A DNA stretch of 30,260 nucleotides. It comes from a virus. Below, piece by piece: positions 20,231 to 30,230 of this stretch (position 1 is its first letter; every line of letters starts with the position of its first letter). A model generated the notes under the pieces. It saw nothing but the letters and a program-made list of their open reading frames with translations. It searched no databases and was not told the DNA's origin. The DNA lies in the UHGV virus genome UHGV-0035817; one strand, given 5' to 3'. Position numbers and translations under genes: made by a program.

Positions 20231-20403
20231 TGTCAGGAGTCCTGAATAGTGATTAGAGGAGTCACATGTCGGCATCAGTTTCCCGACGATGCGCATCCTC
20301 CGCCATCAGTCCCGGATGGCTTATCACTGACACAACAGCACCTTAGCGAATCGCGGGGCGCGACTCAGTAGCCTTGCCGTGTATTCATCACGGCGAGGTA
20401 TTC
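20231..20403. promoter_or_regulatory. Divergent late promoter region between O and P (expected Ogr-dependent promoters)
   Basis: Intergenic region between divergent late operons, as in P2; I could not confidently pick out the Ogr dyad. Confidence 0.4.
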
Positions 20404-22176
20404 ATGACCATCACCACAGACACCACTCTTTTGCACGACCCGCGTCGTCAGGCGGCGCTGCTGTACTGGCAGGGGTTTTCCGTGCCGCAGATTGCCGCCA
20501 TGTTGCAGATGAAACGCCCGACGGTGCAGAGCTGGAAACAGCGCGACGGCTGGGACAGCGTTGCCCCCATCAGCCGTGTCGAAATGAGTCTGGAAGCGCG
20601 GCTGACCCAGCTCATCATCAAACCGCAGAAAACCGGCGGTGACTTCAAGGAAATTGACCTGCTGGGACGCCAGATTGAACGACTGGCACGGGTAAACCGC
20701 TACAGTCAGACCGGCAACGAGGCAGACCTTAATCCGAACGTCGCTAACCGCAACAAAGGCGGGCGTCGCAAACCGAAAAAGAATTTTTTCAGTGACGAGG
20801 CCATCGAAAAGCTGGAGCAGATTTTCTTTGAGCAGTCTTTCGACTATCAGTTGCACTGGTATCGCGCCGGGCTTGAGCACCGCATCCGCGATATCCTGAA
20901 ATCCCGCCAGATTGGCGCGACGTTTTATTTTTCCCGCGAGGCGCTGCTGCGCGCCCTGAAAACCGGTCATAACCAGATTTTTCTGTCGGCCAGTAAAACG
21001 CAGGCGTATGTGTTCCGCGAATACATCATCGCCTTTGCCCGTCTGGTTGACGTTGACCTTACCGGTGACCCGATTGTCCTGGGCAATAACGGCGCAAAAC
21101 TGATTTTTCTCGGCACCAACTCCAACACCGCGCAGAGCCATAACGGCGACCTGTACGTCGATGAGATTTTCTGGATCCCGAATTTTCAGGTACTGCGTAA
21201 GGTGGCATCAGGTATGGCCTCACAGAGCCACCTGCGCTCGACCTATTTCTCCACCCCGTCCACGCTGGCGCACGACGCCTACCCGTTCTGGTCGGGTGAA
21301 CTGTTTAACCGGGGACGCGCCAGCGCCGCCGAACGCGTGGAAATCGACGTCAGTCATAACGCCCTTGCCGGTGGGCTTCTCTGTGCGGACGGCCAGTGGC
21401 GACAGATTGTCACCATTGAGGACGCCCTGAAAGGTGGCTGCACGCTGTTCGACATTGAGCAGCTCAAACGCGAAAACAGCGCCGACGATTTTAAAAACCT
21501 GTTCATGTGTGAATTTGTTGACGACAAGGCGTCGGTGTTCCCGTTCGAGGAGCTGCAACGCTGCATGGTCGACACGCTGGAAGAATGGGAAGACTATGCG
21601 CCGTTTGCCGCGAATCCGTTCGGCTCCCGCCCGGTATGGATTGGTTACGACCCGTCACACCGTGGCGACAGCGCCGGATGCGTGGTGCTGGCACCACCGG
21701 TGGTGGCCGGTGGCAAATTCAGAATACTTGAGCGTCACCAGTGGAAAGGCATGGACTTTGCCACCCAGGCTGAATCCATCCGCAAACTCACCGAAAAATA
21801 CAACGTCGAATACATCGGAATTGATGCCACCGGCCTCGGTGTCGGCGTGTTCCAGCTCGTGCGCTCGTTCTATCCCGCCGCGCGCGACATCCGCTACACG
21901 CCGGAAATGAAAACCGCAATGGTGCTCAAGGCAAAAGACGTTATCCGCCGTGGCTGTCTGGAATACGACGTCAGCGCCACCGACATCACCAGTTCGTTTA
22001 TGGCTATCCGCAAGACCATGACCAGCAGCGGACGCAGTGCCACCTATGAGGCCAGCCGCAGCGAGGAAGCCAGCCACGCCGACCTCGCCTGGGCGACCAT
22101 GCACGCCCTGTTAAATGAGCCACTCACCGCCGGTATCAGCACCCCGCTGACATCCACCATTCTGGAGTTTTACTGA
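20404..22176 (+). CDS. P: Terminase large (ATPase) subunit P (590 aa)
   Basis: Start trimmed to MTITTDTTLL with RBS GAGG upstream; stop overlaps Q start (ATGA). Confidence 0.9.
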   Translation: MTITTDTTLLHDPRRQAALLYWQGFSVPQIAAMLQMKRPTVQSWKQRDGWDSVAPISRVEMSLEARLTQLIIKPQKTGGDFKEIDLLGRQIERLARVNRYSQTGNEADLNPNVANRNKGGRRKPKKNFFSDEAIEKLEQIFFEQSFDYQLHWYRAGLEHRIRDILKSRQIGATFYFSREALLRALKTGHNQIFLSASKTQAYVFREYIIAFARLVDVDLTGDPIVLGNNGAKLIFLGTNSNTAQSHNGDLYVDEIFWIPNFQVLRKVASGMASQSHLRSTYFSTPSTLAHDAYPFWSGELFNRGRASAAERVEIDVSHNALAGGLLCADGQWRQIVTIEDALKGGCTLFDIEQLKRENSADDFKNLFMCEFVDDKASVFPFEELQRCMVDTLEEWEDYAPFAANPFGSRPVWIGYDPSHRGDSAGCVVLAPPVVAGGKFRILERHQWKGMDFATQAESIRKLTEKYNVEYIGIDATGLGVGVFQLVRSFYPAARDIRYTPEMKTAMVLKAKDVIRRGCLEYDVSATDITSSFMAIRKTMTSSGRSATYEASRSEEASHADLAWATMHALLNEPLTAGISTPLTSTILEFY

Positions 22177-23210
22177 TGAGCAAGAAAAAAGGGAAAACAC
22201 CGCAACCTGCGGCAAAAACAATGACCGCCAGCGCCCCGAAAATGGAGGCATTCACCTTTGGCGAGCCGGTGCCGGTACTCGACCGCCGTGACATTCTGGA
22301 TTACGTCGAATGCATCAGTAACGGCAGATGGTATGAGCCGCCGGTCAGCTTTACCGGTCTGGCAAAAAGTCTGCGTGCTGCCGTGCATCACAGTTCACCG
22401 ATTTACGTCAAACGTAATATTCTGGCTTCAACGTTTATCCCGCACCCGTGGCTTTCCCAGCAGGATTTCAGCCGTTTTGTGCTGGATTTTCTGGTGTTCG
22501 GTAATGCGTTTCTGGAAAAGCGTTACAGCACCACCGGTAAGGTCATCAGACTGGAAACCTCACCGGCCAAATATACCCGTCGTGGCGTGGAGGAGGATGT
22601 TTACTGGTGGGTGCCGTCCTTCAACGAGCCGACAGCTTTCGCGCCCGGCTCCGTGTTTCACCTGCTGGAGCCTGATATTAATCAGGAGCTGTACGGCCTG
22701 CCGGAATATCTCAGCGCCCTTAACTCTGCCTGGCTGAATGAGTCGGCCACGCTGTTCCGCCGCAAGTATTACGAAAACGGCGCACATGCCGGATACATCA
22801 TGTACGTCACTGATGCCGTGCAGGATCGCAACGATATCGAAATGCTCCGCGAAAACATGGTTAAGTCAAAAGGCCGCAATAACTTTAAAAATCTGTTTCT
22901 CTATGCCCCGCAGGGGAAAGCCGACGGCATTAAAATTATCCCGCTCAGTGAAGTGGCAACGAAGGACGATTTTTTTAATATCAAAAAAGCCAGCGCCGCA
23001 GACCTGCTGGACGCGCACCGCATCCCCTTTCAGTTGATGGGCGGCAAGCCGGAGAACGTCGGGTCGCTGGGTGATATTGAGAAAGTGGCAAAGGTCTTTG
23101 TCCGCAATGAGCTTATCCCGTTACAGGACAGGATTCGGGAAATAAACGGCTGGCTCGGTCAGGAGGTCATCCGCTTTAAAAACTACTCACTGGACACTGA
23201 CAACGGCTGA
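22176..23210 (+). CDS. Q: Portal protein Q (344 aa)
   Basis: 344 aa; follows P on the same strand and is followed by terminator and cos. Confidence 0.9.
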   Translation: MSKKKGKTPQPAAKTMTASAPKMEAFTFGEPVPVLDRRDILDYVECISNGRWYEPPVSFTGLAKSLRAAVHHSSPIYVKRNILASTFIPHPWLSQQDFSRFVLDFLVFGNAFLEKRYSTTGKVIRLETSPAKYTRRGVEEDVYWWVPSFNEPTAFAPGSVFHLLEPDINQELYGLPEYLSALNSAWLNESATLFRRKYYENGAHAGYIMYVTDAVQDRNDIEMLRENMVKSKGRNNFKNLFLYAPQGKADGIKIIPLSEVATKDDFFNIKKASAADLLDAHRIPFQLMGGKPENVGSLGDIEKVAKVFVRNELIPLQDRIREINGWLGQEVIRFKNYSLDTDNG

Positions 23211-23213
23211 ACA

Positions 23214-23238
23214 TCGCCGCCTGCGGGCGGCTTTTTTA
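23214..23238 (+). terminator. Rho-independent terminator of the P-Q operon
   Basis: GCCGCC-TGCG-GGCGGC followed by TTTTTT. Confidence 0.8.
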
Positions 23239-23379
23239 CACCCCGTCATCACGCCCTCACACGCTCACCACCGCGCAAAACAGCCCGCAGACAAACCAAC
23301 GCCCCGGCGCACAATCTAAACGCCATTACGACGCGCTGAGACGCTGAAAAAATAAAATCAGCACCACCGCCAGCGCGCA

Positions 23380-23398
23380 GTGCTTTCCCCGCCTCGCC
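23380..23398. other. cos site (19-nt cohesive end)
   Basis: GTGCTTTCCCCGCCTCGCC is the reverse complement of GGCGAGGCGGGGAAAGCAC, the P2 cohesive-end sequence as I recall it. Confidence 0.8.
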
Positions 23399-23683
23399 CG
23401 CCCGCTTCACGGGGCGGTTTTAATGCAGTTGCATAGATACTATGGATCCGCACCAGTCCTGACCGCACGCAGCCTGAACGGACATCCCCAACGCATGCAA
23501 AAACATTCACTTGTTGCATGCATAGCTTTTTAAGTACGCCATACCGCAACTGTACATTTTTAAGCAATTGGCAACCTTAAAAAATTTACATTGCTTTCAA
23601 GACCTTATCATCCGTAGTCTCTGTTTTTTACTTTGAGCTACATCAATAAAATCTCAAACATGTTTAATGCAAAGCCCTTGTTA

Positions 23684-23737
23684 CACAACATAGAATGTAT
23701 GTCTAGAAACAACGACATACTATATGTTGTGTTTTTC
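23684..23737 (+). ncRNA. Long imperfect hairpin (about 17 bp paired) followed by T5; candidate small RNA 3' end or terminator
   Basis: ACACAACATAGAATGTATGTC ... GACATACTATATGTTGTGT then TTTTT; lies ~450 bp past the P-Q terminator, so it ends some other short transcript. Confidence 0.35.
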
Positions 23738-23876
23738 CGGCTCTCTGTTCGGTGATATGCCAAATCACTTTGCGTTTAAACAGAGCATTATTTCAGGGCA
23801 AGACTTCGCTCAAAAGTCATTCCACCTAAGAAGCGCATATACCGGTGGAAGTTGCCCTCTACTTACAGGAGGCAAT

Positions 23877-23990
23877 ATGAAGAAATGCTATTACTGCATT
23901 CTCGTTCTGGCCCTCTTTGGCTATCCAAACGGTAGTCCGAGTGGTTTGTCAGTAAACGTCAGTAATATCAATGTCAGCATTATGCTTTAA
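23877..23990 (+). CDS. Small ORF (37 aa) with hydrophobic N-terminus
   Basis: AGGAGG 4 nt upstream of ATG; MKKCYYCILVLALFGYPNGSPSGLSVNVSNINVSIML; stop is followed within ~15 bp by a strong bidirectional terminator. Confidence 0.4.
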   Translation: MKKCYYCILVLALFGYPNGSPSGLSVNVSNINVSIML

Positions 23991-24002
23991 TATGCTTCAA
24001 AC

Positions 24003-24033
24003 AAAAAAACCACCTGCCAGGGTGGTTTTTTTG
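24003..24033. terminator. Bidirectional rho-independent terminator (A7-ACCACC...GGTGGT-T7)
   Basis: GC hairpin flanked by A-run and T-run; terminates the small ORF on plus and probably the A operon on minus. Confidence 0.75.
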
Positions 24034-24292
24034 CGCCCATCATCAATACGATGAAAGACTGACAAGACTTCGCTCAAGACGAATTATGCGTCGACATAAG
24101 GTTACCCGCAATGATTTTATTAGACTAAATGGATGGCCTTTTATGACCCGGATCAAACGGCTGTCCTTACCGACATGCTAGTCACTCAATAGCATTTAGC
24201 CTTCTAATTCAGCATGCTATTGACCTTCTGCTGCCCCATAACTGCTCCGCATAAGCCATTCAATGCCATATCAAATCACGTTGTGTTTTTAC

Positions 24293-26569
24293 TCAAATGG
24301 GTAACGAGAACCCCGGCCACTCATCAGCAACCGGATACGTGAATTTTTTCCCGTCATAATTTACGGTCGCGCCACGCGCCAGCGCCTCAAGCTCCCATCG
24401 TTGCGGCCTGATACCGTTCTGAGCGAGGTCAACGCGGATACGGGTAATTTGCAATCGTTCAGACCTGGTCAGTCTGGCAGATGGTGCAATTTCATGCGGT
24501 TTTAACGGGATTCCGTTTCTTTGCTGACGATTTGGTGTTCTCAGTCCGTGTTTTAATGCGCCCCTGAGCGCCATCACGACCTCCGGGTCACTCCATTCGA
24601 TAACACCGTCATCTACCAGATTAAGCACTGCTGCGGCGTGCTCAGAAGGTGTGGGAGCCGGTAACGAAGTATCACCACCGGTGAGCTTTCCACAGTTATT
24701 GACAGGACTCCGAGGCGCGGCGATGCCGCTTTTTAAAGTCAAAGGCTCAACGACCGGAACTTTCGGCACAATGCGCCAGTCCGTCGTTCTGGTGATATGA
24801 ATATGACGCGCGCCGAGATGCGGCGCGTAAATGCCGACCACTCTCTCGACTTCTTCCTCGTACTCGTTAACGTCATCCGACAGACTACGGGCGACCCTGA
24901 CAGTCTGACAATCGCGCGGGACATTTGCCCCGCCCTGCGCGCTGATATACAGCGCAAAATCACCACTGTCTGCGGCGGCGCGTGCAGCCTCGACGCGCTC
25001 GTCAAACTCATCAGCAATGCTGACGCCGCGAGGCAATTTGCGTAGTTCACGGTAAGCCCCCATTGTCGGCAGGCCAACCGTTTTAAATTGCGGAATGCGC
25101 CACGTTGACGCCCATGCGGTAACAGCCGCTGCAGTGTCTTTCAGCGGCCTGCCGGTGTCGTTATCGAGCTGACCATCCAGTGCATAGCCGTCGATGTTTT
25201 TTGAAATGTATTTCGCGATATATCCCGCAGCACCGCCCCGGTTAAGGTGTTTTGCCTGAAAACGGTTTCGCGCGGCTCCTCTTTCGTCGCCATCCTCTTT
25301 GAGCGCATAGCGACGCATGATTTCGATAATCTGGTTACGCTGGCGTGGATGACAAAAAAGCATCATATGCCAGTGCGGCGTTCCGTCGTGGTGTGGCTCG
25401 ACGACTCGCAAACCGTAGACCTGTAAATCATTATCCTTGAATGCCGTGCGCATCAGGCTCCAGATACGGCAGAGATAACGCTGCGCATCCTTTGGATTAA
25501 ATGCCTCATCGTTCCAGCCGTGATTAAGCTGAACGGTTTTACTTTCGCCTTTTCCGACCTGACGTGTCGGGTGATACTTTGACGGCGCGGTCAGCGTGAT
25601 AAACATCCCCACATCACCCTCTGCGGCGGCGTAACGCTCAATACCGGCAATGGTGTTCATCAGCTCCATCCGGCGAATTTCAGGATTAGAAATACTGCCC
25701 ATCACCTTACTGATAAGGTCGATGCGCTCGCCGGTTTCCCTGTTTTCAAGGTCACACGATTTAAGAAATTCCAGATTTGCCTGGCGGCGCGCACGCACAT
25801 CACGAATGGCGTGTTTACTGGCATAAGGAGAACGGTCTTTATTGACCTCCCCGACAGCTATCAGTAACGCCTCATGCCAGCGCATACGCTGGCCTTTAAG
25901 CTGATGAGTCCACCACTCATCGTTAAACAGGCGGGCAATGGCAGAATATGCCTGCCTCGTGGTCATCTGTCCTTTACGGTATTTTTTCCAGTAGAGCGGG
26001 GAAATATTGAAAGCACGTGCAGCGCCAGCAACATGACCATACAGGTGAGCCTGCGCCTCATCCGTAAACAGCGATTCTTTTTCACCATGCGCATCAACCC
26101 ATGCATCGCAGAGTTCCTCATACATCATGAAAAGCTGCGATGAGATACGGGCGGCAAACTTTTTCAGCTCCTTGTCATTCATTCCCGGCAGGCGCGCATA
26201 GTGGTCACGCTCTGCCAGAAACAGCAACGACGCGTCGGTGTTCATTTCATGGCGCTGATTCACACGCTCAATGCGCGGCCATAAACGACGCTGAAAAGTA
26301 GATGTGAGGAAATAAAACCCGTGCACCGGGCTTTTATTGCGCCGGATGTAGTCATAGCGTGAAGTAAACAGCGAGCGCAAAAAGTAAGGCAGGCGGTTAA
26401 TCGTGGATAAAACACCTTGCACCTGACGCATCTCGTCACGTGTAAGAGGTCTTTCGCGCCCGACAGCCTCGCGTGGCGCGTTCCATGCATAAGCACCGGT
26501 AAACGCCTTACCGGTGCCTGCGGTAAATGCTGACGGAGGGACAAAACGCCCGGAGGCTTTAACGGCCAT
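24293..26569 (-). CDS. A: Replication initiation protein A (rolling-circle nickase, about 758 aa)
   Basis: MAVKASGRFVPPSAF... matches my recollection of the P2 gpA N-terminus; the ORF track uses an upstream TTG at 26611, so the start is uncertain. Confidence 0.85.
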   Translation of the reverse strand: MAVKASGRFVPPSAFTAGTGKAFTGAYAWNAPREAVGRERPLTRDEMRQVQGVLSTINRLPYFLRSLFTSRYDYIRRNKSPVHGFYFLTSTFQRRLWPRIERVNQRHEMNTDASLLFLAERDHYARLPGMNDKELKKFAARISSQLFMMYEELCDAWVDAHGEKESLFTDEAQAHLYGHVAGAARAFNISPLYWKKYRKGQMTTRQAYSAIARLFNDEWWTHQLKGQRMRWHEALLIAVGEVNKDRSPYASKHAIRDVRARRQANLEFLKSCDLENRETGERIDLISKVMGSISNPEIRRMELMNTIAGIERYAAAEGDVGMFITLTAPSKYHPTRQVGKGESKTVQLNHGWNDEAFNPKDAQRYLCRIWSLMRTAFKDNDLQVYGLRVVEPHHDGTPHWHMMLFCHPRQRNQIIEIMRRYALKEDGDERGAARNRFQAKHLNRGGAAGYIAKYISKNIDGYALDGQLDNDTGRPLKDTAAAVTAWASTWRIPQFKTVGLPTMGAYRELRKLPRGVSIADEFDERVEAARAAADSGDFALYISAQGGANVPRDCQTVRVARSLSDDVNEYEEEVERVVGIYAPHLGARHIHITRTTDWRIVPKVPVVEPLTLKSGIAAPRSPVNNCGKLTGGDTSLPAPTPSEHAAAVLNLVDDGVIEWSDPEVVMALRGALKHGLRTPNRQQRNGIPLKPHEIAPSARLTRSERLQITRIRVDLAQNGIRPQRWELEALARGATVNYDGKKFTYPVADEWPGFSLPI

Positions 26570-26834
26570 ATGAGCCAAAAGCCTCTGAACAACGCTTGCT
26601 GAGTTGCTCAACCTGCGCGTTTAAATCAGCAAAAGATTTTGCGCTTCCGGTCAGAATATCGTGATGCATCAGGCCGGAAACGAGCTGGCCTAATTTCGGG
26701 TAATAACCAACCACCGCCAGCCATTCCTGACCGGCGTTTTTACCGCTTTCCGCTCTCTTTTTCTCGTGGAGAATAAACTGAAAGCTGTCACTGGTAACGA
26801 CATAACGTTTGCCAATTTCAATACGAATACTCAT
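26559..26834 (-). CDS. Small early protein (P2 orf83-like position, 91 aa)
   Basis: Position between the zinc-finger ORF and A; function unknown. Confidence 0.6.
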   Translation of the reverse strand: MSIRIEIGKRYVVTSDSFQFILHEKKRAESGKNAGQEWLAVVGYYPKLGQLVSGLMHHDILTGSAKSFADLNAQVEQLSKRCSEAFGSYGR

Positions 26835-29017: not shown

Positions 29018-29086
29018 CTCTATATAAAGATTACATTTTCACCATTTGCTACCAAGATGGTGAATACAGCGCCGGAGGGCTTTCTT

Positions 29087-30067
29087 ATGGCAATTAAGAA
29101 GCTCGATGATGGTCGCTATGAAGTGGACATTAGACCTCGCGGTCGCGACGGAAAACGCATCCGCAGGAAATTCGAAAGAAAAGCTGAAGCACTAGCATTT
29201 GAGCGATACACAATCGCCAATGCCAGTCAGAAAGAATGGGGAGGCCAGCGAGCAGACCGCCGGACTTTGAGTGAGTTGCTGGACATCTGGTGGAAATATC
29301 ACGGGCAAAACCACGAGCATGGAACAAAAGAGTTTAATCATCTACTCAAAACCATCAGCGGCATAGGTGATATACCAGTGAGCAGGATGAGCAAAAGGGC
29401 TTTGATGGATTATCGTTCCATGCGACTACGTGATGGTATCAGTGCCGCAACGATAAACCGTGACATGTACCGATTATCCGGCATGTTCACAAAATTAATT
29501 CAATTGGATGAATTTTCCGGGCAACACCCAATTCACGGACTGCCGCCACTGGCGGAGGCCACCCCTGAAATGACGTTCCTGGAAAAAGCAGAAATCGAAA
29601 AACTGTTAAATGTTTTGGCTGGTGATGACTTACTTGTCGCGCTTTTATGTCTGAGCACCGGAGGAAGATGGACGGAAGTTGCCACGCTAAAACCAGCACA
29701 GATTACAAATTGCAGGGTTACCTTCCTGAAAACCAAAAACGGTAAAAAGCGAATCGTGCCGATTTCTGAGGAACTGGAGAAAAAAGTTAAAGAGGAGGCC
29801 AGCGCCAAATTATTCAAAGTTGATTATGAGAAATTTTGCGGGATTTTACGCAGAGTGAAACCTGATATACCACCCAATCAGGCAACCCACATCCTGCGGC
29901 ATACATTCGCAAGCCATTTCATGATGAATGGGGGCAATATAATCGCACTGCAACAGATTCTGGGACATGCGAGCATTCAGCAGACGATGGCCTATGCGCA
30001 CCTTGCGCCTGACTATCTGCAAAATGCCGTCGCTCTGAATCCACTAAAAGGCGGAGTGACGTTATAA
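29087..30067 (+). CDS. int: Tyrosine integrase (326 aa)
   Basis: MAIKKLDDGRYEVDIRPRGRDGKRIRRKF... P2 Int-like N-terminus; C-terminal catalytic region HILRHTFASHFMMNGGNI...LGHASIQQTMAYAHL; start trimmed to ATG with GGAGGG RBS. Confidence 0.9.
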   Translation: MAIKKLDDGRYEVDIRPRGRDGKRIRRKFERKAEALAFERYTIANASQKEWGGQRADRRTLSELLDIWWKYHGQNHEHGTKEFNHLLKTISGIGDIPVSRMSKRALMDYRSMRLRDGISAATINRDMYRLSGMFTKLIQLDEFSGQHPIHGLPPLAEATPEMTFLEKAEIEKLLNVLAGDDLLVALLCLSTGGRWTEVATLKPAQITNCRVTFLKTKNGKKRIVPISEELEKKVKEEASAKLFKVDYEKFCGILRRVKPDIPPNQATHILRHTFASHFMMNGGNIIALQQILGHASIQQTMAYAHLAPDYLQNAVALNPLKGGVTL

Positions 30068-30101: not shown

Positions 30102-30186
30102 CTCAAGAAATTTTGAAACCGCTCCAAACCCTTACAGCTTTCGATAAGTACCTGTTTTTACTTTTGATTGCATGTAAGTAATTGAT

Positions 30187-30230
30187 AAAAAAAACCCCCA
30201 CATCATGTGGGGGAAGACAGGGATGGTGTC
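30187..30230. repeat. attR core: 44-bp direct repeat identical to 92-135
   Basis: Exact repeat; host-like sequence continues after 30230. Confidence 0.85.

Follow-up and report, generated by a model that had tools for sequence, protein, structure and literature searches.

The window analysed here, namely, the whole 30,260-nucleotide (nt) stretch of virus genome UHGV-0035817, is an almost complete P2-like (Peduovirus) prophage in which the 15-mer CAAGACTTCGCTCAA occurs twice on the plus strand, at positions 23799-23813 (copy 1) and 24063-24077 (copy 2), with 264 nt from start to start. Comparison of this region with its relatives indicates that the repeat is probably a match between the seed of a predicted small RNA (sRNA) and its target in the leader of a small-protein mRNA, with the two genes together comprising an RNA-pairing module. 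By analogy with characterised loci, this module is most likely a new pair akin to type I toxin-antitoxin systems, carried as a moron by mobile elements.

In the proposed arrangement, a promoter resembling that of nrdDG would generate, on the plus strand, an mRNA of ~330 nt that comprises a structured leader of ~173 nt and a 37-codon open reading frame (ORF), and that ends at a bidirectional terminator. On the minus strand, a sigma-70 promoter would generate a 73-nt sRNA that converges on the same terminator without overlapping the mRNA. Because the two genes lie on opposite strands, a direct repeat in the DNA corresponds to complementary RNAs, such that copy 2 would be part of the regulator gene and copy 1 its target in the mRNA. 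Pairing of the sRNA 5' end with the leader would then silence the peptide gene.

In a preliminary description of this region, identical 15-mers 264 bp apart were said to flank a small ORF and its terminator. An exact match search found the same, with the 37-codon ORF (23877-23990) and the terminator (24003-24032) lying between the copies. That both copies bracket the cassette did not hold, since the left copy lies inside it, in the predicted leader of the small-ORF mRNA. The motif is not common across the genome, as only the two exact copies of CAAGACTTCGCTCAA were detected in the window, even when two mismatches were allowed (expected, 0.04), and two or more matches were found in none of 100 shuffles. 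Exact 15-mer direct repeats no more than 300 nt apart were seen in 14 of 1000 block shuffles of the window. As such, the view that the pair is non-random and regulatory was borne out, given that it exceeds chance and that its copies are conserved and covary, as described below.

Predicted pairing and covariation of the two repeat copies

Homologues of the module were sought in public collections by scans anchored on the terminator, on a hairpin of the 5' untranslated region (UTR) and on a promoter segment, all of which are independent of the repeat, and divergent copies were recovered in this manner. The repeat pair was present in every full-length copy of the module. Homologues that are only ~65-75% identical overall, and in which divergence at synonymous sites of the ORF (pS) reaches 0.46-0.79, keep both copies of the repeat at fixed positions.

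The first 13-15 nt of the predicted sRNA (5'-GAGCGAAGUCUUGUC) are complementary to positions 23797-23811 of the leader, 64-80 nt upstream of the AUG, and a duplex between the sRNA 5' end and this site is predicted for all variants, with 13-17 nt and -25.6 to -31.9 kcal/mol. Seeds of two classes were distinguished. The class I seed, CAAGACTTCGCTC, was found in the P2-like, N15-like, inovirus and Klebsiella plasmid modules, while the class II seed, TAAGGCTTTGCTC, was found in both copies in elements from Leclercia, Enterobacter, Salmonella and Citrobacter, the corresponding bases in the sRNA being GAGCAAAGCCUUA. In the clade of L051, L053, L079, L200 and L201, the changes C1>T, A5>G and C10>T are found in both copies.

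Differences restricted to one copy were also considered. In L016 and L194, position 5 of the repeat is G in the mRNA copy and A in the sRNA-gene copy, while in L052, position 1 is T in the mRNA copy and C in the sRNA-gene copy. The dinucleotide just 5' of the repeat, which distinguishes the window type from type B, reads GG opposite GA or AG. All interior one-sided differences lead to G·U or U·G pairs and never to A·C. When the two partners from 10 distinct variants were concatenated and aligned, 90.6% of the cells were paired, as compared to 35-50% when the partner was slid. In the same alignment, three pairs are changed on both sides and four vary via G·U, and the covariation score of 0.222 was attained in none of 500 shuffles, these being shuffles that ignore the kinship of the sequences.

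Cross-pairing of the two seed classes would be asymmetric, in that a class I sRNA could pair with a class II mRNA by way of three G·U pairs, while the reverse combination would entail three A·C mismatches. This could confer one-way cross-immunity between co-resident elements.

The predicted minus-strand sRNA

The predicted 73-nt sRNA runs from 24075 to 24003 on the minus strand and is made up of a 5' seed left unpaired, followed by a stem-loop and the terminator. The seed region (24061-24077), with a predicted +1 at 24075, overlaps copy 2 of the repeat. The promoter assigned to the sRNA (24083-24122, minus strand) contains a -10 hexamer, CATAAT (24088-24083), a 17-nt spacer, a -35 hexamer, TTGCGG (24111-24106), and an A/T-rich upstream tract. 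Over the variants, the same region reads as an A/T-rich tract, TTGC(G/C/T)N, a spacer of 17-18 nt, CATAAT, 6-7 nt and GAGC(G/A)AAG. Across 12 variants, the hexamers show little or no change, while no relationship is seen between the spacers and discriminators of distant variants. Since the hexamers are kept while the sequences around them diverge, the conservation pattern is, at the level of sequence, that of a real promoter. The homology among modules ends just past this promoter.

At its other end, the sRNA would terminate at a perfect bidirectional intrinsic terminator, A7-CCACC-tgccag-GGTGG-T7 (24003-24032), with the stem at 24010-24014/24021-24025, the A-run at 24003-24009 and the T-run at 24026-24032. 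This terminator is invariant across all module variants. The fold of the 73-nt sRNA has a z-score of -4.4. The RNAalifold consensus of 10 variants leaves the first 16 nt unpaired, these being followed by the central stem-loop and then by the terminator. The sequence of the central stem-loop is wholly different between variants, with seven pairs being kept by compensatory changes. Because several of these pairs are U·G and would be A·C on the plus strand, the structure appears to be specific to the minus strand.

Searches of Rfam, conducted with the region at a permissive E-value and with the whole window in gathering mode, returned only sub-threshold, terminator-driven matches to RNAI, the Phe leader, rseX and OrzO-P. 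ColE1 RNAI (RF00106) was rejected, having scored 24.8 bits against a threshold of 47 with a likeness limited to the terminator hairpin, as was OrzO-P, with 21 bits where 60 are required and an alignment that covers only the terminator, on the wrong strand. A 26-amino-acid (aa) minus-strand ORF (23997-24077) that covers the sRNA was also set aside, given that the central part of the sRNA is variable in length and sequence. Likewise, the only match in a scan for the sigma-70 consensus, the plus-strand sequence CTGACA-17-AATTAT overlapping copy 2, was discarded because its -35 element is not conserved in the relatives.

On the minus strand, no intrinsic terminator was seen between the stop codon of the replication endonuclease gene gpA, at 24293, and the sRNA promoter (24076-24292). 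With no terminator following gpA, read-through from the early operon would extend across the sRNA region as far as the shared terminator. In lytic growth, the 3' end of the gpA transcript would then contain the antitoxin-like sequence as well.

The small ORF and its leader

The small ORF (23877-23990, plus strand; ATG at 23877 and stop at 23990) encodes a 37-aa peptide, MKKCYYCILVLALFGYPNGSPSGLSVNVSNINVSIML, and corresponds to the 3' part of a longer frame that spans 23724-23990. The ORF is preceded by AGGAGG. The peptide presents a basic N-terminus, ~12 apolar residues and a C-terminus of alternating polar and apolar residues, while its family is characterised by a Cys-containing apolar run and by a conserved C-terminal half of the form G-S/Q-x-S-G-W/L ... 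S-N/H-I-N/S-V-S-I. In nine diverged variants, the ORF remains open over 37-39 codons, with pN/pS (the ratio of non-synonymous to synonymous divergence) being 0.25-0.46. An ORF that stays open with so low a ratio is, judging from its sequence, a real gene under purifying selection. The 88-aa frame at 23724-23990 was rejected as a gene, since relatives contain an in-frame stop in the upstream extension; when compared to a large protein database, this extended frame was matched by three unnamed clusters only. No match was found for four variants of the peptide in Pfam, PHROGs or NCBIfam.

The predicted 5' UTR comprises ~173 nt (23704-23876, plus strand), its start being placed by promoter homology as described below. 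Structure in the leader covaries over nine variants, with compensatory changes in 8 of 25 consensus pairs. For example, the hairpin at 23820-23826/23844-23850 is formed by CCACC/GGTGG, CCGCC/GGCGG or CCTTCAG/CTGAAGG. The sRNA target site (23797-23813, plus strand) includes copy 1 of the repeat and the core duplex at 23797-23811. Downstream on the same strand are a C-rich element, UUGCCC (23852-23857), and the Shine-Dalgarno (SD) sequence AGGAGG (23867-23872).

In the RNAalifold consensus of nine leaders, a conserved helix joins the 5' part of the target site to the C-rich element, which lies ~10-25 nt upstream of the SD sequence. In this helix, the strand from the site is GGUGGC or GGUGGU in the majority of variants but GGGCAA (23796-23801) in the window, and its C-rich partner is GCCGCC or ACCACC in the majority but UUGCCC in the window. 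The helix is backed by both one-sided and compensatory changes. In the minimum-free-energy fold of the window leader, the C-rich element pairs instead with the SD region to form an SD-sequestering hairpin. Because the C-rich element could, according to these predicted folds, pair with either the site or the SD region, binding of the sRNA to the site would free the element for SD sequestration. Direct occlusion of the SD sequence by the sRNA is unlikely, given that the target site lies 64-80 nt upstream of the AUG. We thus infer from the modelled folds that silencing could rely on an SD-sequestering switch. It is equally possible, by analogy with tisB and zorO, that pairing would block a ribosome standby site or lead to cleavage by RNase III.

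A promoter homologous to that of nrdDG

The region upstream of the small-ORF mRNA (23577-23703, plus strand) is homologous to the promoter of enterobacterial nrdDG, encoding the anaerobic ribonucleotide reductase. With the promoter segment as anchor, 109 chromosomal nrdD upstream regions were retrieved from metagenomes, nrdD being recognised by the N-terminus of its product, MTPHVMKRDGCKVPF. Over 123 nt, the window and an E. coli-type nrdD promoter (L080) are 74% identical, with the likeness ending shortly past the -10 element, while the module of a Leclercia plasmid (L053) shows 85% identity with a different chromosomal nrdD promoter (L083). Over ~125 nt, the module and nrdD promoters share the upstream FNR-like site TTGAGCTACATCAA, the TTGATGCAAA element and a -10 sequence, TA(A/G)AAT, the TAGAAT of the window aligning with the TAAAAT of nrdD. 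This homology places the start of the mRNA near 23704. The module version differs from its chromosomal counterpart in driving a 37-codon ORF in place of nrdD.

The FNR-like site, TTGAG-N4-ATCAA (23633-23646, plus strand), agrees with TTGAT-N4-ATCAA at 9 of 10 positions and is identical and aligned in L080. The FNR sites of nrdDG reportedly lie at -64.5 and -33.5. An alternative mRNA promoter, TTGAGC-17-AAACAT, was dropped, as its TTGAGC...ATCAA portion is the FNR site in the nrdD homologue. Two 16-mers resembling NrdR boxes were also identified on the plus strand. The first, ACACAACATAGAATGT (23683-23698), agrees with the pattern ACACWATATATWGTGT at 13 of 16 positions and overlaps the -10 element (23691-23696), while for the second, ATACTATATGTTGTGT (23717-23732), the count is 14 of 16. 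The whole window contains just three matches to the pattern, two of them here, as compared to an expected 0.21. Canonical NrdR boxes are 16 bp each, with a 15-bp linker (PMC12176259), and the 57-bp fragment used in the same study to measure NrdR binding to E. coli nrdDG is found as an exact sequence in L080. The starts of the two boxes are 34 nt apart in the window (18-bp linker) and 32 nt apart in type-B relatives (16-bp linker). Relative to nrdDG, where the starts are normally spaced by 31-32 nt, the window boxes are displaced by ~9-12 nt. Given that nrdDG is activated by FNR and repressed by NrdR (PMC2892513), the module promoter may be subject to control by both. The promoter is the unusual part of the module, as a mobile-element gene would apparently be tied to the FNR and NrdR circuits of the host through a copied nrdDG promoter.

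Module lineages differ in which species' nrdD promoter they most resemble, with that of the window being of the E. coli type and that of the Leclercia plasmid being of another enterobacterial type. This suggests, from the sequences, repeated capture of the host nrdD promoter or gene conversion with it.

The same nrdD-like promoter segment was also encountered in IMGVR_UViG_2600254917_000001 (L077; anchor at 2952-2987), where it is followed, ~190-630 nt downstream, by different content, namely, a bidirectional terminator, the 17-nt direct repeat AACTGTCTTCATCTAAC in two copies 168 nt apart, and a 25-codon hydrophobic ORF, MIDIDHVILALNALLVCLEIAKAFL. By eye, this ORF resembles toxins of the DinQ type; no match was found in NCBIfam. 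L077 looks like a second, unrelated locus in which a direct repeat joins an sRNA to its target. Together, the two loci illustrate a rule of method, whereby a short direct repeat around a terminator and a small ORF would be a good predictor of an opposite-strand sRNA and its target.

Distribution of the module

The module spans ~550 bp (~23577-24125), and homology among copies stops at those limits, leaving ~220 bp of shared sequence before copy 1 and ~50 bp after copy 2. It was found in five unrelated backbones, namely, P2-like prophages, an N15-like element, an inovirus, contigs resembling conjugative plasmids or integrative and conjugative elements (ICEs), and IncF-type plasmids. In the N15-like plasmid-prophage (L016), the module lies between the protelomerase gene and that of a 1383-aa, Toprim-domain replication-like protein, while in a Kluyvera contig (L052), it adjoins inovirus Zot and secretin genes. 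In L051 and L053, it lies between TraI/ScsC-like genes and a tyrosine recombinase/integrase gene. Matches were moreover found in 422 plasmid records, mostly of conjugative Klebsiella plasmids and also from Salmonella, Citrobacter and Leclercia, with nothing annotated at the matches listed.

The distance between the two repeat copies is usually 264-270 nt and reaches 1187 nt. In L051, an Enterobacter metagenome-assembled genome (4480-6050, minus strand), the sRNA gene and the ORF are ~1.2 kb apart, yet the covaried seed is kept. The terminator is duplicated in the DNA between them, which also contains a 217-aa ORF without a match in Pfam. Either DNA was inserted into this module, or the module is being rebuilt.

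When genome contigs were scanned, the UTR anchor gave no matches, while most of what the terminator anchor retrieved was the hairpin itself on small contigs, and only three matches were true homologues. This hairpin, AAACCACCTGCCAGGGTGGTTT, is identical on many small contigs (L039-L075, ~0.4-8 kb), some of which are named plasmids and some of which belong to assemblies of Actinomycetes, Clostridium and Pseudomonas, probably as contaminants or plasmids. The contigs resemble small ColE1-type plasmids with an RNAI-type terminator. Were they ColE1-like, this would account for the weak match to RNAI in Rfam.

Relation to known systems and alternative explanations

Type I toxin-antitoxin loci combine a gene for a small (<60 aa) hydrophobic or membrane protein with an sRNA gene at the same locus that is complementary to the toxin mRNA. 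With its 37-aa peptide and the computationally predicted complementarity of its sRNA, the module is consistent with this description. As in the zorO/orzO (E. coli O157:H7), tisB/istR-1, shoB/ohsC and dinQ/agrB loci, a small hydrophobic ORF follows a long structured 5' UTR, and a separate, non-overlapping sRNA gene on the opposite strand has short complementarity to this UTR, seen in the DNA as a direct repeat (PMC3919570). For zorO/orzO, the complementary stretch of 18 nt is located at the 5' end of the sRNA and 73-91 nt before the AUG, within a UTR of ~180 nt, and 15 continuous pairs suffice (PMC3919570). The module differs from these loci in that its peptide is unlike ZorO, TisB, ShoB and DinQ, its sRNA belongs to no Rfam family, its promoter is nrdDG-like rather than LexA-controlled, and it is found on phages and plasmids. 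The sRNA genes of zorO/orzO-type loci are located upstream and are divergent. By contrast, the sRNA gene of the module is convergent, lies downstream and shares a bidirectional terminator with the mRNA.

Plasmids and prophages also carry killer loci of the hok/sok type, in which the gene for a small membrane peptide is repressed by an RNA. Unlike the module sRNA, however, Sok is a true cis-antisense RNA that overlaps mok/hok, and the module has no Hok fold, mok leader ORF or Pfam match. In ralR/ralA of the rac prophage, RalR is a DNase rather than a small membrane peptide and has no sequence relationship to the module. Across the Hok, Ldr, TisB, Ibs, ShoB, ZorO, DinQ, Sok, IstR and OrzO families, no match was obtained in Pfam, NCBIfam or PHROGs, nor in Rfam at gathering score, and literature searches found no description of the module, its peptide or its seed. 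By analogy with hok/sok, roles in stabilisation or phage exclusion are plausible.

Several points weigh against regarding the module as a toxin-antitoxin pair regulated in this way. Both RNAs and both transcription start sites are predictions. The three double changes are confined to one clade and thus reflect few independent events, and kinship is not taken into account in the shuffles. In the P2 type C modules associated with a retron, the mRNA copy has A where the first base of the sRNA would need C, leaving one cell unpaired. The alternative, SD-sequestering helix is convincing only in class I variants. Finally, the apolar run of the peptide, at ~12-13 residues, is below the length of a canonical transmembrane helix, and comparison of the peptide to Pfam, PHROGs and NCBIfam linked it to no known toxin family. 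The case for the peptide being a toxin, made by analogy, is evenly balanced.

The strongest alternative, albeit one to which we assign a minor share of the probability, is that RNA pairing occurs as proposed and that the peptide is no toxin, with the module encoding an accessory small membrane protein controlled by an sRNA. The peptide might, for instance, modulate a host membrane complex or act as a superinfection-exclusion factor under anaerobiosis or low deoxynucleoside triphosphate (dNTP) levels, and the sRNA might have host targets. Along with the short apolar segment and the dissimilarity to known toxins, selection on the conserved polar C-terminal half and a promoter that looks condition-specific, with its FNR and NrdR-like sites, speak for this option. 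On the other hand, the architecture is that of characterised type I loci, and spread over phages, plasmids and integrative elements together with a linked, co-evolving repressor RNA is a hallmark of addiction or abortive infection.

If the peptide is a toxin, one could tentatively go further and envisage, as an unlikely yet coherent elaboration, a condition-gated type I toxin-antitoxin system in which the toxin promoter was copied from host nrdDG, possibly repeatedly, the whole serving as a minimal abortive-infection or addiction device. Toxin mRNA would be made when FNR is active or when NrdR leaves its boxes, i.e., upon anaerobiosis or a fall in dATP, the latter being plausible as a lytic phage drains or rewires the dNTP pool. 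Such a device would fill P2 defence hotspots now scored as gene-free and would also reside on hundreds of conjugative plasmids of Klebsiella and Salmonella. Confirmation of the type I-like pair would extend the type I toxin-antitoxin repertoire by a widespread pair of sRNA and small protein that has escaped annotation, and would provide a testable link between oxygen or dNTP status and a killer or exclusion function borne by phages or plasmids.

That both 15-mers are binding sites for one DNA-binding protein, as proposed in the preliminary description in terms of a duplicated regulator site, is improbable. Coevolution with the specificity of a protein could in principle yield two copies that are conserved and covary. 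Still, the differences between the copies all lie in the G·U-compatible direction, preserving RNA pairing rather than DNA identity. Moreover, the contexts of the copies are unlike, with one lying in a UTR and the other at the +1 region of a promoter/terminator unit on the opposite strand, 6-7 nt past an invariant -10 element. Nor does the spacing of the copies stay fixed, and the module contains no gene for a DNA-binding protein, yet moves between unrelated backbones and genera.

Less probable still is the other proposal made earlier, that the repeat is a target-site duplication or recombination scar formed as the ORF-terminator cassette was inserted or exchanged at the P2 hotspot. The gpA-gpQ interval is indeed an established site of exchange (PMC9122126), and cargo on the cos side varies. 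This variation, however, falls outside the repeat pair, at ~23420-23577. Because the same repeat pair is found within the module in all five backbones, with homology continuing well past both copies, the repeats are internal and do not correspond to a target-site duplication or exchange scar. No terminal inverted repeats or recombinase were found in the interval between the copies, and a search for single-copy genomes without the cassette, as had been suggested, yielded no empty site among the 201 loci fetched. A chance coincidence is just as improbable and effectively refuted, for even though a 15-mer repeat at any distance occurs in 29% of shuffled windows, one within 300 nt occurs in just 1.4%, and conservation and covariation extend to distant homologues.

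The prophage and its hotspot

A perfect 47-nt direct repeat, GATAAAAAAAACCCCCACATCATGTGGGGGAAGACAGGGATGGTGTC, is found at 89-135 and 30184-30230, i.e., 30,095 bp apart, and presumably corresponds to attL and attR of the P2-like prophage, such that the window would contain nearly the entire element. A candidate integrase ORF (29057-30067) was assigned from position alone. The plus strand carries the genes for the terminase ATPase (20374-22176) and the portal (22176-23210), after which comes the cos region, while the gpA gene (24293-26611) is on the minus strand. The earlier placement of the locus in a prophage hotspot agrees with published work, in which the gpA-gpQ interval is a defence hotspot of gene exchange, occupied in P2 itself by old and tin (PMC9122126).

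In the identical RefSeq locus, the portal-gpA interval contains zero annotated genes, and among the RefSeq records examined, neither the small ORF nor the sRNA is annotated. One strain with a locus identical to that of the window is E. coli 382634_2f (NZ_CP039403). The gpA-gpQ hotspot (23211-24292 in the window) is thus without an annotated gene in this prophage and in identical RefSeq loci, an observation that concerns one hotspot only. In a 2026 survey, no P2 genome was found in which both main defence hotspots were gene-free (PMC13586616). If the module is confirmed, the gpA-gpQ hotspot of P2-like phages may seem empty by annotation and yet hold a compact, RNA-controlled module.

The ~765 bp adjoining gpA are common to P2-like prophages that carry differing cargo on the cos side, with 86-100% identity. 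This cargo includes a retron-type reverse transcriptase in one relative, and ImmA/IrrE together with two hypothetical genes in others, while the window has none. When an 893-nt query was used, matches were found in 247 of 5426 complete E. coli genomes, with query coverage of at least 80% in 149 of these.

Two further elements were noted in the hotspot. A hairpin, GCATGCAAAAA-N7-TTGTTGCATGC (23493-23521), lies between cos and the module and is also kept in L003, next to the junction with its retron-type cargo. It may act as a terminator for the cargo or as a junction element of the hotspot. Lastly, an imperfect 30-nt direct repeat of 73% identity links 23748-23777, in the leader hairpin region, to 24259-24288, just past the gpA stop, and is probably due to chance.

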